DNA from: a virus | DNA: 64,000 bases | Direction: 5' to 3' (one strand) | Virus record (IMG/VR): IMGVR_UViG_3300042519_001698 | Shown: piece after piece, positions 1-50,579 of the stretch | Layout of the letters: each line of letters starts with the position of its first letter | Position numbering within the stretch: position 1 is the stretch's first letter | Notes under the pieces: model-generated | The model's database searches: none | Seen by the model: the letters and a program-made list of their open reading frames with translations, nothing else | Told to the model about the DNA's origin: nothing | Program-made: the position numbers and the translations under genes

Positions 1-126
1 GGTATTAGAATCACCAGTATATACCTCCGCACCTGATAATATTAATTCTTGTTTGCATTTATTTAAAATGGAATCACACTCTTCAGGTGACAGGAAGTTT
101 TCAAATATATCTATATTACCAATCAT
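1..126 (-). CDS. Probable 2OG-Fe(II) oxygenase (prolyl-4-hydroxylase-like N-terminus), truncated by window edge
   Basis: Not in ORF track. Manual translation from ATG at 126: MIGNIDIFENFLSPEECDSILNKCKQELILSGAEVYTGDSNT, open to base 1. ENFLSPEEC is the typical N-terminal motif of P4H-like oxygenases. Confidence 0.55.
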   Translation of the reverse strand, partial: MIGNIDIFENFLSPEECDSILNKCKQELILSGAEVYTGDSNT

Positions 127-131
127 ATATT

Positions 132-341
132 TTATTTTTTAAGTCCGTACTTGATCCATTTATACCAAATTCTCTCATGAAAATAGTATTGTATCGGTTT
201 ATAAATCAATTCCGCAACACCAAACGCAGCACCGACTTTAATTGATCCACTTATCAACCACATTAATAGGAAACCAATTAACGTACTTACAATACGATAT
301 GAGATGGTTTTTGCTATGTGTCTCTTACGTTCTACTATCAT
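132..341 (-). CDS. DUF2061-like small membrane protein
   Basis: AKTISYRI...hydrophobic segments...YYFHERIW pattern; adjacent to cysC. Confidence 0.65.
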   Translation of the reverse strand: MIVERKRHIAKTISYRIVSTLIGFLLMWLISGSIKVGAAFGVAELIYKPIQYYFHERIWYKWIKYGLKK

Positions 342-721
342 TATCCTTTAGTTTGGTCATATTTAATTTCACCATCAGGTGTCATGTGACCAGTCCTAAT
401 GGCCGTTCCACTTATAACTGCAACATCTGCAGGTGGTTCATGGTAAATTACATCATAACCAACTCCTCTACCATAATTTACCGATTCAATGTCGGGTATA
501 ATTGATAATAAAATTTTATCAAAATTATTTGTAAAGAAAGGTTCATTTGATAATTCCTTTAAAATTTCTTGTGCCGTTTTAGGATTATTCTCGTCTTGGT
601 CAACATTTCTAATTGCAACCCAAACATTTTTACCTTGATTTAATTGTTGGTTGATTAACCACTCATGTCCTTTGTGCCAATTTTGCCATCTTCCGATGTA
701 CATTGCGTATTTTTTACTCAT
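341..721 (-). CDS. HIGH-superfamily nucleotidyltransferase (cytidylyltransferase-like; candidate minimal ATP sulfurylase)
   Basis: YIGRWQNWHKGH (HxGH motif) and a C-terminal ISGTAIR motif; overlaps the cysC stop by 4 nt. Confidence 0.7.
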   Translation of the reverse strand: MSKKYAMYIGRWQNWHKGHEWLINQQLNQGKNVWVAIRNVDQDENNPKTAQEILKELSNEPFFTNNFDKILLSIIPDIESVNYGRGVGYDVIYHEPPADVAVISGTAIRTGHMTPDGEIKYDQTKG

Positions 722-1152
722 ATATCTAATTTAACTGTTAGTTCGATGAATGAATCCACCTCTTTTTTATTGGTGGTATCAATATCTATGAAATTATTAT
801 TAGGGGTTTCATAATCGGTCACATGAAAATTTTCACGACCTCTTTCGTCTGTCGTGTGAACATATATTTCTTTAACTTGATTATTTTCTTTGAATTCTTC
901 TCGTTGGTCGCGGTATGGTGACACCAACGAAACAATAACGTTGAATCCTTTTTGACTCATGAATCGAGCAATATCTTGGGCTCTTTCGATATTTTTTCTT
1001 CTACCGAATTCTGAGTAATCTTTATTTTGAAAGATGTCACGCAAATCATCTCCATCAATGTGAATCACATTTTTATTTTCAAAATACGTGACTAAATGTT
1101 TAGCCAATGTAGTTTTTCCTGCACCGGGTTGACCTGTAAACCAATATATCAT
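718..1152 (-). CDS. cysC: Adenylyl-sulfate (APS) kinase
   Basis: WFTGQPGAGKTT P-loop, IDGDDLR, VSLVSPYRDQRE, YETP: classic APS kinase motifs, compact form. Confidence 0.9.
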   Translation of the reverse strand: MIYWFTGQPGAGKTTLAKHLVTYFENKNVIHIDGDDLRDIFQNKDYSEFGRRKNIERAQDIARFMSQKGFNVIVSLVSPYRDQREEFKENNQVKEIYVHTTDERGRENFHVTDYETPNNNFIDIDTTNKKEVDSFIELTVKLDI

Positions 1153-48747: not shown

Positions 48748-48777
48748 GTTTTATTTTTGTGTTTCTTTTTTTATTAT

Positions 48778-48785
48778 TATAAATA
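48778..48785 (-). promoter_or_regulatory. TATTTATA motif, putative late promoter
   Basis: Upstream of the start at 48747. Confidence 0.5.
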
Positions 48786-48797
48786 CTTTATTTTTGA

Positions 48798-50579
48798 TTA
48801 GAAGAACCCATCACCACAATCAATTACTTGATTTAAATTTCTATCGGCTATCGTTCCTAAATTTTGAATTGTTAAAGAAGCCGATTTAAATTGACTCTGA
48901 AACAAACTCATTGCTCCCGAAATAATTAAAGAATCTAAATTTGGGTCTACTGTTTGAACTAATGTAGTTGTACCTTCTACTCTTAAGTCTCCTTTAATTG
49001 TAACAGAACCTGTTGTATATAATGAACCTGTGAAAATGTGTGTATCTCCTTGTGTGTCACCAAATGCAGTAGAACCACTCGCATATTGAGTGGTCATGTT
49101 TGTTACAGATGATGATATGATTAATTCTCTAGCCGTAATTGTACCCGCAACAGTTAAGTTGTTAGATATAATCGCAGAACCTGTGACATTTAAATCACTA
49201 CCATCAAAAGTCATATTGCTTTCAACCGTAGCGTAAGGTGCAACACTATTTAGTGTTATAACACCGTTATCTGTTGTACCCGATAATGTTAAAGTACCTG
49301 GAATACCAATTGGTGTGATTGTGAAAATATCACCATCATTTGGGTCTGTTCCGTTTGAGGTTAATTGTACAACAGTATATTTTTCATACCCAAAATCATA
49401 TGGGGTTGCTTGTGTAACTTGTAAAAACTTATACGTGGTTGCATCGTTAAGATTAACAACCTTTAATATTGTATTAATTTGTATAGAATCTAAATAAGCC
49501 GATAAAGAGGCTCCATTTAAATCATTTGGTATATTATTAATTGCAATTTCTGTTGGTGAACTTCCCCAAGAAGCGGCATTCATTGAGAAATAGTTACTAC
49601 CAGGATTTACCGATGTATCGGTTGTTGCTTTAAATTTCCATTTTGCTAAATGACCTTCTTGTCCTGAAGTACCACTTGTTCCCGACGTGCCACTTGTACC
49701 GGATGTCCCTGCGGTTCCTGAACTACCTGAAGTTCCACTTGTTCCTGTGGAACCACTAGAACCTGAAGTTCCAGAAGAACCATCACTACCTGAAGTTCCA
49801 GATGTACCACTAGTACCTGTAGTTCCACTAGAACCTGATGTTCCCGAAGAACCATCACTACCTGAAGTTCCTGACGTTCCTGAACTACCTGAAGTTCCAG
49901 CCGTTCCTGACGAACCAGAAGTTCCACTAGTCCCATCAGTTCCACTAGAACCTGACGTACCCGCAGTTCCTGAAGTACCTGCCGTTCCACTAGAACCTGA
50001 CGTACCCGCAGTTCCACTAGAACCTGACGTACCACTTGTTCCTGAAGAACCGTCACCACCAGCGGCACCACCTAAGTTAACATCCCATGATGTATATGTT
50101 CCAGTACCAAAAACATTTATTACAAAAACAGATAACGTACCGTTACCTGAGTTATATGACAAAACACTACCATCTATGTAACGTGTGTCACTATTAGAAA
50201 TTAATATTTTGTGAGCAACAATGTACGATAAACCAGTTTCGATTGAAATGGTTATTGTTTGACCGCTTACAACATTTAAATTTATTGAATTAGATGAGTG
50301 TGATTTAAATCTATCACCACTACTTCCACTTGTACCTGAAGAACCCGATTGACCAGTTTGACCTATTTGACCTGACGTACCTGACGTTCCACTAGAACCT
50401 GTTCCACCACCTCCACCACCACCTGCCGCAATTAAATCTGTAACACTTGTTCCGGAGATATAAAGATTGTCAGCGTATACCGCATGTAATGAACCGCTTA
50501 TTGATCCTAAGTCAATCGTTGACCCTGACGGGACGATTTCGGTTTCAATTTGGGTCCAATTAATTTTTTGTAAAGCCAT
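48798..50579 (-). CDS. Collagen-like (Gly-Ser/Thr) modular fibre protein 5
   Basis: Two G-x-y tracts; shares the GTGT.TSW..NL.GA.GGDG module with fibre 1 and the FG..D.H.FTGS module; ends VIDCGDGFF. Confidence 0.8.
   Translation of the reverse strand: MALQKINWTQIETEIVPSGSTIDLGSISGSLHAVYADNLYISGTSVTDLIAAGGGGGGGTGSSGTSGTSGQIGQTGQSGSSGTSGSSGDRFKSHSSNSINLNVVSGQTITISIETGLSYIVAHKILISNSDTRYIDGSVLSYNSGNGTLSVFVINVFGTGTYTSWDVNLGGAAGGDGSSGTSGTSGSSGTAGTSGSSGTAGTSGTAGTSGSSGTDGTSGTSGSSGTAGTSGSSGTSGTSGSDGSSGTSGSSGTTGTSGTSGTSGSDGSSGTSGSSGSTGTSGTSGSSGTAGTSGTSGTSGTSGTSGQEGHLAKWKFKATTDTSVNPGSNYFSMNAASWGSSPTEIAINNIPNDLNGASLSAYLDSIQINTILKVVNLNDATTYKFLQVTQATPYDFGYEKYTVVQLTSNGTDPNDGDIFTITPIGIPGTLTLSGTTDNGVITLNSVAPYATVESNMTFDGSDLNVTGSAIISNNLTVAGTITARELIISSSVTNMTTQYASGSTAFGDTQGDTHIFTGSLYTTGSVTIKGDLRVEGTTTLVQTVDPNLDSLIISGAMSLFQSQFKSASLTIQNLGTIADRNLNQVIDCGDGFF

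Follow-up and report, generated by a model that had tools for sequence, protein, structure and literature searches.

We analysed a 64,000-nucleotide stretch of viral DNA from IMG/VR record IMGVR_UViG_3300042519_001698 (the window), in which a soluble glycan toolkit of ~32 kb (positions 718–32729) adjoins a block of fibre genes (32754–50579), as a prediction made earlier from the letters alone (the original prediction) had claimed. Within the toolkit lies a gene module that keeps its order beside fibre genes in related phages and includes two tandem glycosyltransferases (GTs) of the animal beta-1,4-galactosyltransferase (beta4GalT) type, GT7a and GT7b, each with a LamG domain inserted into its catalytic domain. 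This module and the Ser/Thr-rich collagen-like repeats of the fibres, which the original prediction had joined as enzyme and acceptor, dissociate in both directions. We tentatively read the toolkit as one that glycosylates virion fibre proteins in the cytoplasm.

A gene module conserved beside fibre genes

A scan of IMG/VR with GT7b gave 65 related loci. In approximately 58 of the 65 the same order runs along one strand: one or more large fibre genes, small structural/LamG proteins, often a GT-A-fold GT, a Methyltransf_24 methyltransferase, a GT2-like GT, GT7b, GT7a, a twitch-domain radical S-adenosylmethionine (SAM) enzyme and a protein of ~245 residues. The ~245-residue gene is often followed in relatives by a second radical SAM gene and a GT-B module, beyond which the sugar genes vary. 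The gene just upstream of the module differs between sub-lineages, and upstream fibres and downstream sugar genes have been exchanged among relatives while the order of the module stays. Since GT7b is 41–60% identical across these loci, the order has survived much divergence. These data support a physical and evolutionary link between the glycosylation toolkit and fibre genes in general. The module genes in the window are:

32010–32729, minus strand: first module gene, a 239-aa GT-A fold with a retaining-type look (GT8/GT24/GT6-like); AlphaFold2 (AF2) model at pLDDT 84, invariant D-A-D
31265–32020, minus strand: Methyltransf_24 SAM methyltransferase; PF13578, E 1.9e-10; in 56 of 65 relatives
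30368–31225, minus strand: GT2-like GT-A (GT2_4); PF13704, E 6e-6, at 27.1 bits just under the 27.5-bit cut-off
28701–30143, minus strand: GT7b, beta4GalT-type GT-A with inserted LamG; PDB beta4GalT7, E 4e-30
27298–28704, minus strand: GT7a, beta4GalT-type GT-A with inserted LamG; PF13733, PF02709, PF13385
25893–27287, minus strand: twitch-domain radical SAM enzyme, paralogue C, the conserved copy; NF033640, E 4e-104, 349 bits (cut-off 170)

The model of the first gene matches UGGT, BoGT6a, LgtC and GlyE in Foldseek (E 4e-6 to 6e-5). The GT2-like ORF is present in 57 of the 65 relatives, with identities of up to 71%, and radical SAM paralogue C in 51.

GT7a and GT7b combine a beta4GalT core with a LamG domain

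Both GT7 proteins match Glyco_transf_7N (64.7–71.6 bits, cut-off 27) and Glyco_transf_7C (68.9–73.4 bits, cut-off 23), and their homology to animal beta4GalT1 and beta4GalT7 reaches E 4e-30 with a single sequence and 1e-42 with a profile. The tandem pair are 31% identical to each other and keep an H-D-V-D motif (with the metal-binding D-V-D), a W-x-W-G-x-E-D block and a late His; H72, D73, D75, W135, W137, G138, E140, D141 and H418 are invariant in 26 sequences.

The GT7b profile matches beta4GalT1 in two pieces (query residues 3–155 and 422–468), and the stretch between them (227–341) matches pentraxins and other LamG/jelly-roll lectin-like chains. Because the match splits around this lectin-like stretch, the alignments place LamG as an insertion within the catalytic domain, between beta4GalT1-equivalent residues ~203 and 225 and near the part of beta4GalT1 from which its acceptor site is built. 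The catalytic domain is not contiguous, and neither GT7 has a transmembrane (TM) segment that could serve as a type II membrane anchor, nor a stem. The family comprises 2273 metagenome protein clusters, none of them named, on contigs of up to 345 kb; a search of 50,697 deposited phage records with GT7 returned zero matches. We know of no earlier description of a GT7 enzyme with an inserted LamG domain.

At least five GT-like ORFs had been predicted, and five were found, comprising six catalytic modules. The fifth ORF lies on the other strand, among the sugar genes:

8548–11253, plus strand: tandem double GT-B of 901 aa with a GT10-like lead; two ~430-aa modules, halves 39% identical

This protein has no Pfam match and no PDB sequence match. 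The AF2 model of its N-terminal module (pLDDT 75) matches GT-B or GT-B-like structures at all of Foldseek PDB ranks 1–50, including GT10 fucosyltransferases (E ~1e-3, weak), and the atlas lead of GT10 (score 0.79) is a lead only.

Collagen repeats dissociate from the GT7 module and pair with TibC-like enzymes

Of the ten proteins encoded at 32754–50579, five are fibres, four of them Gly-X-Y proteins free of proline, and five are small homologues of virion proteins:

48798–50579, minus strand: collagen-like fibre, 593 aa; PF01391, E 1.7e-19 (2e-19 rounded); 177 tract residues
46645–48747, minus strand: non-collagen fibre-like protein, 700 aa; weak tail-fibre PHROGs; domains in common with collagen ORFs that follow TibC-like genes in relatives
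44585–46426, minus strand: fibre with a short collagen tract, 613 aa; PF01391, E 7e-7
40457–44512, minus strand: collagen-like fibre, 1351 aa; PF01391, E 2e-72; PHROGs; 558 tract residues
36558–40364, minus strand: collagen-like fibre, 1268 aa; PF01391, E 1e-70; tail-fibre PHROGs, E 1e-76; 591 tract residues, Ser+Thr 0.59, no Pro
34472–36554, minus strand: three paralogous small virion proteins; phrog_15727, E 1e-64 to 1e-68; 42–50% identical to S-PM2 p092
32754–34200, minus strand: two LamG virion-protein homologues; PF13385, E 4.5e-17 and 2e-25; phrog_8510 'virion structural protein'; homologues of S-PM2 p094

Homology of the block to fibre and virion proteins runs through PHROGs 5073, 6320, 1806, 15727 and 8510. 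The strict Gly-X-Y tracts are 57–591 residues long and Ser/Thr-rich as predicted, but at 53–59% (0.53–0.59 of the tract, most of the non-Gly positions) a little below the two-thirds that had been estimated. The tracts contain no stabilising Pro or hydroxyproline and few charged residues that could pair (no Pro; 2–8 charged residues per protein's tracts). A search with the 593-aa fibre found no match in the 50,697 deposited phage records, the low-complexity filter having probably defeated it.

Gly-X-Y tracts are present in the upstream fibre of just about half of the related loci, and the genomes of three complete relatives with the module, G001, G002 and G003 (276, 245 and 199 kb), are free of collagen repeats throughout. 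In the other direction, at least 120 viral contigs of all sizes match a degenerate DNA pattern for (G-T-S-G-S-S)2, and GT7 is found in 2 of 28 collagen-pattern records and in 0 of the 5 that are complete. Module and repeats therefore dissociate both ways, and the collagen Ser/Thr tracts are not the defining target of the module. The original prediction had proposed co-occurrence of GT7-LamG with Gly-Ser/Thr repeats as a check, which fails in both directions, and had named relatives with the cluster and without Ser/Thr fibres as evidence against itself; such relatives exist. Its claim that the phage O-glycosylates its own fibres keeps a soluble toolkit tied to fibre genes and loses the tie to Ser/Thr collagen shafts.

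A different enzyme accompanies the repeats. Four of the 5 complete collagen-pattern phages encode, no more than a few kb from the collagen ORFs, a large GT1-domain protein whose C-terminal half is a homologue of TibC (PDB 4RAP, E 1.9e-39), an autotransporter heptosyltransferase that O-glycosylates Ser in the cytoplasm. A TibC-like gene is present in 12 of the 28 collagen-pattern records. Among records of the GT7 lineage, 12 have both a TibC-like gene and collagen, 5 have collagen only (all fragments), 1 has the TibC-like gene only (a 6% fragment) and 19 have neither (Fisher p 6e-5; 8e-4 once near-identical records had been roughly grouped by hand). The TibC-like gene stands directly before a Ser/Thr collagen ORF of 450–675 aa that shares domains with window positions 44585–50579, at a locus apart from the GT7 module. 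TibC/Aah-type homologues (676–998 aa) beside Ser/Thr collagen ORFs, in phages of 66–336 kb, are located at:

L220:9479–11509, minus strand
L224:2756–5752, plus strand
L225:7983–10106, plus strand
L226:4715–6844, minus strand

Collagen tracts thus travel with a TibC-like protein O-heptosyltransferase in related phages, a pairing on which we found no paper in the literature. The Ser/Thr tracts point to the TibC-like enzymes, and the GT7 module needs another or a broader acceptor. Since TibC-type enzymes adjoin Ser/Thr collagen fibre genes, cytoplasmic glycosylation of phage fibres is probably common. No TibC homologue was found in the 97 kb available for this phage, 24% of its estimated genome.

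Two further observations concern these enzymes. A PfkB sugar kinase and an SDR (short-chain dehydrogenase/reductase) epimerase lie on the opposite strand 1.7–3.3 kb past the window end (L002:13773–15337), followed by ClpP (L002:15420–16094); the pair could possibly be an ADP-heptose cassette, both matches being at family level. In the 170-kb phage G007 (L221:10346–16915), two collagen ORFs by TibC-like genes have very long Gly-X-Y tracts with 5% Ser+Thr, and a neighbouring 2645-aa collagen ORF, partly covered, is Ser/Thr-rich in the portion seen. Collagen fibres beside TibC-like enzymes do not all offer Ser/Thr acceptors.

Small virion proteins between the fibres and the module

In cyanophage S-PM2, p092 and p094 are annotated as virion structural proteins encoded just downstream of the giant tail fibre p091, and the order in the window is that of S-PM2 p091–p094. 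The five small homologues share an N-terminal M-P-F-N-I-G-G start, or adaptor, which suggests a common attachment site. From the S-PM2 homology and this shared start, the LamG proteins at 32754–34200 are more probably fibre-tip or baseplate-associated proteins. The lectins of the original prediction accordingly divide into these two virion-protein homologues and two LamG proteins among the radical SAM genes (22496–23946).

The array is continuous and its region encodes no membrane proteins

Fibres, lectins and GTs share one strand from 50579 to 18927, as predicted, and this minus-strand array is gap-free when small ORFs in its two larger gaps are counted. Between the 1268-aa fibre gene and the radical SAM genes no gap exceeds ~25 nt, two small ORFs being counted. 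Scans for sigma-70-type promoters and intrinsic terminators gave no richer yields than shuffled sequence, and terminator-like sites across 18500–38400 were no more numerous than in shuffles. Four of the five fibre genes are preceded by a terminator-like hairpin with a T run and then by TATTTAT 16–38 nt before the start (e.g. 40365–40456 and 50580–50640), which suggests a late promoter for each fibre gene.

The motif TATAAATA occurs at 4784, ahead of the 2-oxoglutarate (2OG) oxygenase gene at 4811–5629. As an argument for late timing of the sugar block, TATAAATA and TATTTAT are ambiguous, the two being reverse complements at a divergent junction (4743–4810). A second motif, YTATATTATA, has 6 copies against 1.7 expected, a number reached in 0 of 100 shuffles. 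Four are on the minus strand at:

1158–1167
3166–3175
32733–32742
56535–56544

Three copies end 4–13 nt before start codons, those of the adenosine 5'-phosphosulfate (APS) kinase, the first module gene and the ORF at 56067–56522; the motif is a possible promoter or signal for translation, separate from the TATTTAT of the fibre genes.

No ORF in 1–50579 has a TM-like segment. It follows that this region encodes no initiating phosphoglycosyltransferase, flippase, polymerase, ligase or ABC permease, and the Pfam calls there include no match to initiating phosphoglycosyltransferase, flippase/polymerase or Wzm/Wzt families. The predicted absence of membrane anchors on the GTs and of a flippase or polymerase is borne out.

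The sugar-making and tailoring block

Gene calls were checked with Pfam, NCBIfam and PHROGs profiles. The toolkit totals three SDRs, RmlC, a split thiamine pyrophosphate (TPP) E1 pair, two 2OG oxygenases, four radical SAM enzymes, two methyltransferases, a carbamoyltransferase, an APS kinase and six SGNH-like paralogues. The predicted RmlC, SDRs, TPP pair, carbamoyl, methyl, 2OG and radical SAM enzymes all have Pfam support. Outside the array the genes are:

718–1152, minus strand: short APS kinase (144 aa); PF01583, E 1.8e-18; residues 1–142 align with relatives
1338–3005, minus strand: NodU/CmcH-type carbamoyltransferase; PF02543, E 4e-60; PF16861, E 8e-65
3184–3984 and 3987–4742, minus strand: two SGNH-like (DUF6071-type) paralogues; DUF6071, E 2e-5 for 3987–4742
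4811–5629, plus strand: 2OG-Fe(II) oxygenase, first plus-strand gene of the block; PF13661, PF13640
5639–6400, plus strand: SGNH-like DUF6071 protein; DUF6071, E 2.6e-11
6440–7411, plus strand: GalE/RmlB-like SDR (putative NDP-hexose 4,6-dehydratase or 4-epimerase); PF01370, E 4.5e-34
7413–7958, plus strand: RmlC-type NDP-4-keto-6-deoxyhexose 3,5-epimerase; PF00908, E 3e-32; TIGR01221, E 1.9e-30
7955–8587, plus strand: TPP enzyme, E1 alpha-like half (E1_dh); PF00676, E 1.7e-19; pyruvate dehydrogenase (PDH) E1 alpha, E 1.4e-28, truncated
11254–12186, plus strand: GDP-fucose-synthase-like SDR (putative 4-keto reductase/epimerase); PF01370, E 2.5e-38; NF047922, E 2.7e-36, below cut-off
12152–12883, plus strand: 2OG-Fe(II) oxygenase; PF13640, E 8.8e-11
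12902–13876, plus strand: GDP-fucose-synthase-like SDR; PF01370, E 5e-41; NF047922, E 5e-39, below cut-off
13879–14583, plus strand: SAM methyltransferase (MTS type); PF05175, E 1.4e-5
14585–15721, plus strand: radical SAM enzyme, 378 aa; PF04055, E 4.5e-8; weak twitch-family match
15724–16716, plus strand: SGNH-like paralogue, no Pfam match; G-C-S-F-T and D-H-H-P motifs; aligned with the DUF6071 set
16694–17233, plus strand: TPP enzyme, E1 beta-like (pyrimidine-binding, Transket_pyr) half; PF02779, E 5.6e-7; PDH E1 beta, E 3e-9
17243–18130 and 18130–18930, plus strand: two SGNH-like paralogues; motifs, and a weak DUF6071 match for the first

The best NCBIfam matches of the SDR at 6440–7411, a gene present in 20 related loci, are galE and dTDP-glucose dehydratase, both below cut-off. 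The SDR at 12902–13876 has a 36% identical homologue in the Bdellovibrionaceae locus L090. The carbamoyltransferase has homologues in two relatives (L015 and L070) and at an O-antigen locus of a Bacteriovoracaceae genome (L076), and the APS kinase adjoins the core module in relatives L015 and L017. Of the predicted supply of 3'-phosphoadenosine 5'-phosphosulfate (PAPS), the APS kinase is present but no sulfurylase or sulfotransferase was found.

The predicted SGNH acyl enzymes are a tentative assignment: all six paralogues share an N-terminal G-C-S-F-T (block I Ser) and a C-terminal D-x-x-H-P (block V Asp/His). The family match is to DUF6071 only, in three of the six, and the two best PDB profile matches are SGNH proteins at non-significant values (E 0.39 and 0.96). 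The paralogue at 15724–16716 adjoins the TPP beta gene in 10 relatives. The 2OG oxygenases were considered as collagen prolyl or lysyl hydroxylases and rejected as such, because the tracts hold no Pro and almost no Lys.

Radical SAM enzymes and their cellular homologues

Downstream of the GT7 genes, the array continues with radical SAM paralogues, LamG proteins and unmatched ORFs:

25316–25915, minus strand: 199-aa protein between radical SAM genes; no family match; homologues in L012, L016 and L070
23931–25322, minus strand: twitch-domain radical SAM enzyme, paralogue B; PF04055
22496–23946, minus strand: two LamG proteins (219 and 256 aa) interleaved with radical SAM genes; PF13385
20992–22440, minus strand: twitch-domain radical SAM enzyme, paralogue A; NF033640, E 7e-87, 292 bits (curated cut-off 170)
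18927–20983, minus strand: two paralogues (274 and 270 aa; 47% identical) and a conserved 140-aa ORF; no family match

The two LamG proteins are 45% identical to each other, show a weak likeness to the LamG insert of GT7 and form a class distinct from the structural LamG proteins. In most relatives the gene after the radical SAM gene is the ~245-aa gene, in some of them a LamG protein. The 140-aa ORF has homologues in 11 relatives; the 270–274-aa paralogues at the end of the array (18927–20560) have no family, PDB or relative match. A PDB sequence search with the radical SAM protein found no matches, and a relaxed Pfam search of ten unmatched ORFs gave nothing usable. Paralogue B is 39% identical to gp349 of the Ralstonia jumbo phage RsoM2USA, which shares just the radical SAM gene and a distant SDR with the window; the neighbourhood of gp349 is wholly unannotated.

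In cells, the twitch radical SAM family (NF033640) has homologues, 40–48% identical and often in tandem, in polysaccharide loci of Bdellovibrionota. In the Bdellovibrionaceae locus L090 two copies adjoin homologues of the SDR and of TPP alpha and beta, a candidate branched-sugar pathway. In L076 the neighbours of one copy include a carbamoyltransferase, a Wzt/RfbE-type ABC ATPase (E 1.5e-42) and a permease-sized ORF with 6 TM segments. From these settings, the twitch radical SAM enzymes most probably tailor sugars rather than proteins. Taken as a whole, the toolkit looks like a bacterial locus for O-polysaccharide from which all membrane components have been removed. In four Bdellovibrionota metagenome-assembled genomes (MAGs) of predatory bacteria (L075, L090, L091 and L092), the NF033640 family is expanded to two or three tandem copies.

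The phage and its genome

Judged by its sequence, the window, which comes from lake water, is a fragment of an uncultured T4-like jumbo phage, an assignment made because relatives found through the GT7 protein reach 199–336 kb and carry a T4-type Gp23 capsid gene (4 of 4 relatives); it is best explained as the fibre/host-recognition island. The G+C content is ~30%, and there are no tRNA genes in the window. From position 872 to 64000 the sequence matches, without a difference, an IMG/VR record of 97,223 bases (24% complete by CheckV), from which positions 1–871 are absent; the APS kinase ORF crosses the 871/872 edge. We rejected positions 1–871 as a foreign, joined-on contig: relative L211 has counterparts of the APS kinase and of the ORF after it in matching order, so the segment is contiguous with the rest, and the 97,223-base record is a shortened copy of the source of the window.

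Past the fibre island the window holds thioredoxin, AAA ATPase, NusG, Dam, amidase and sigma-70 factor genes, and farther along the 97,223-base record are DnaG primase, SbcC, ClpP and very large ORFs. The methylase is placed as follows:

53211–54053: Dam methylase

A 629-aa protein (56570–58459) has an EF-hand/dockerin-like calcium-binding pair at residues 205–269, the rest of its sequence being unmatched. The whole module (GT-A, methyltransferase, GT2, GT7b, GT7a and radical SAM enzymes) is also present in L070 (CBFHJJ010000001.1, 248 kb, 33% G+C), filed under a Flavobacteriaceae MAG. L070 is most probably a phage genome of the same lineage binned with bacterial DNA, and its filing is a weak hint of the host, or simply misbinning.

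What the toolkit may act on

The reading that we prefer, with confidence somewhat short of even, is cytoplasmic glycosylation of virion fibre proteins. Donor sugars would be supplied by a 6-deoxyhexose route through the dehydratase-like SDR, RmlC and the two reductase-like SDRs, and the split TPP E1 pair could add a two-carbon branch. Tailoring would comprise methylation, O-carbamoylation, SGNH-type acylation and perhaps sulfation, and the variable accessory block that provides these steps would also contribute two GT-B modules. The module GTs would build the glycan in the cytoplasm, late in infection, directly on the neighbour-encoded virion surface proteins (fibres and tip proteins), and the LamG insert of GT7 would hold the macromolecular acceptor. 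The gap-free linkage to fibres, the absence of lipid-carrier and export genes, the LamG insert, the evidence from TibC-like enzymes and the mycobacteriophage precedent (see below) favour this reading.

Several points weigh against it. Characterised beta4GalT-family enzymes extend sugar acceptors, not peptides, so a priming enzyme must be assumed among the GT-A, GT2 and GT-B proteins. The acceptor, like the sugars and the timing, is inferred. The module is present in three complete relatives free of collagen repeats and missing from most phages that have them. Because YTATATTATA, not TATTTAT, precedes the first module gene, the module may have its own regulation. In cells, the nearest homologues of the radical SAM genes, the TPP pair, the SDR and the carbamoyltransferase are in Bdellovibrionota loci with an O-antigen-type ABC transporter, and synteny within a single phage lineage owes something to inheritance as opposed to independent selection. 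The fuller picture, in which a widespread lineage of T4-like freshwater jumbo phages coats its own fibres or tips in the cytoplasm, partly by means of two animal-type beta4GalT-LamG enzymes, is possible but doubtful. The coat would be a branched deoxysugar glycan bearing methyl, carbamoyl and acyl groups, and, counting the separate TibC-like/collagen cassettes as well, virion glycosylation would be general in large aquatic phages and no longer peculiar to actinobacteriophages.

The strongest competitor, itself rather unlikely, is remodelling of the host envelope. Here the soluble enzymes would act at the inner membrane face on undecaprenyl-linked O-antigen, capsule or S-layer intermediates that the host then exports, and the altered surface would block superinfection or stop progeny from sticking to debris. 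Extension of sugars is what beta4GalT enzymes do, the module is independent of collagen repeats, and O-antigen GTs are normally soluble or peripheral, so that missing TM segments are no argument against this alternative. Cellular homologues of the twitch radical SAM enzyme lie by a Wzt/RfbE-like ABC ATPase and carbamoyltransferase (L076) and by an SDR and TPP genes (L090), and relatives carry the T4-type capsid gene; envelope modification is the published reading for GT-rich islands of T4-like pelagimyophages and cyanomyophages (PMC7029224, PMC12801897). However, 50 kb contain no lipid-carrier, flippase, polymerase, ligase or permease gene, and no matching host glycan can be named. The module is locked gap-free and on the same strand to fibre genes in ~58 contigs, an odd site for an exclusion function, and the position of LamG next to the acceptor side in GT7a and GT7b alike hints that the acceptor is large and specific.

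Another target is improbable: the ~245-aa LamG partner of the radical SAM enzyme, a capsid decoration protein, a host protein or a free glycoconjugate. The radical SAM gene followed by the ~245-aa gene is kept in most relatives, the latter sometimes a LamG protein weakly like the GT7 insert, and the variable gene just upstream of the module would also suit such a target; nothing singles out any one acceptor, however, and the LamG partners belong to no family beyond PF13385.

DNA hypermodification, with the GTs decorating hydroxymethyl-pyrimidines as protection against restriction, is very improbable, since the complete relative G003 has the module and no thymidylate-synthase-family (hydroxymethylase) gene, relatives that do have one score as ordinary ThyA (E ~1e-92 to 1e-95), the module lies in a structural island away from nucleotide-metabolism genes, and we know of no DNA-GT precedent for a GT7 fold with a LamG insert. 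For it stand the nearby Dam methylase, the glucosylation or arabinosylation of hydroxymethylcytosine by T4-like phages, and the complex DNA glycans that have been reported (Pyle, 2024, as cited in PMC12619734).

Comparison with known systems

In T4-like aquatic myophages, tail fibres, many GT and lipopolysaccharide (LPS) genes and radical SAM cassettes share one hypervariable island, for which O-chain modification is favoured (Zaragoza-Solas et al., 2020; PMC7029224); the pelagimyophage 'host recognition cluster' is placed between VrlC and gp14 (PMC7029224), and 13 GTs with epimerases and RmlC of a cyanomyovirus are listed under cell-wall modification (PMC12801897). The window agrees with this cluster and with the LPS clusters of P-SSM2, S-SCSM1 and S-SCSM2R in that the island of a T4-type phage joins fibres (some collagen, concanavalin-like), GTs, deoxysugar genes and radical SAM enzymes. 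It differs in its larger lineage (relatives of 199–336 kb) and in a fixed core of five to six genes, including GT7, that is not described there. The 'Moraphages', with four core GTs (PMC12619734), could not be tied to the window lineage.

Cytoplasmic O-glycosylation of virion proteins has been shown for mycobacteriophages, the acceptors being the C-termini of capsid and tail-tube subunits (Freeman et al., 2023, as cited in PMC12619734). There, as in the window, soluble phage GTs and a methyltransferase lie beside structural genes, whereas the window enzymes are unrelated (GT7-LamG), the toolkit is far larger, the phage is T4-like, and the system is known from genes alone.

With animal beta4GalT1 and beta4GalT7 (PDB 3LW6, 4IRP and 6FWU), the phage enzymes share homology over the whole catalytic core, the D-V-D motif, a W-G-W-G-x-E-D-D-type block and the late His; in contrast to these, they have no anchor or stem, an insertion of ~190 LamG/pentraxin-like residues, and tandem paralogues. 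The module is not homologous to the TibC/Aah (PDB 4RAP) cassette and does not co-vary with collagen. The glycans of BclA, the Bacillus anthracis exosporium collagen with linked rhamnose and anthrose genes, and of Mimivirus fibrils have been characterised. Those systems likewise place Gly-X-Thr-type collagen-like surface filaments near deoxysugar and GT genes with RmlC-type chemistry, but in other organisms and with other enzymes, and in the window lineage co-variation of module and repeat failed.

Islands of fibre and GT genes in T4-like aquatic phages and phage virion glycosylation were known already; what is new is the fixed module, the insertion of LamG into GT7, an accessory block of this size and chemistry, and the double dissociation that reassigns collagen tracts to TibC-like enzymes. 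Glycans on the fibres, if present, would change how adsorption, stability and host range of abundant aquatic phages are seen, and likewise their grazing or immune recognition. The habit of annotating 'LPS genes' of marine and freshwater T4-like phages as modifiers of the host surface would be overturned as well. Irrespective of target, GT7-LamG, with its conserved GT-A, methyltransferase, GT2 and twitch radical SAM partners, is an undescribed architecture with more than 2000 metagenome protein clusters in an otherwise animal-centred family.

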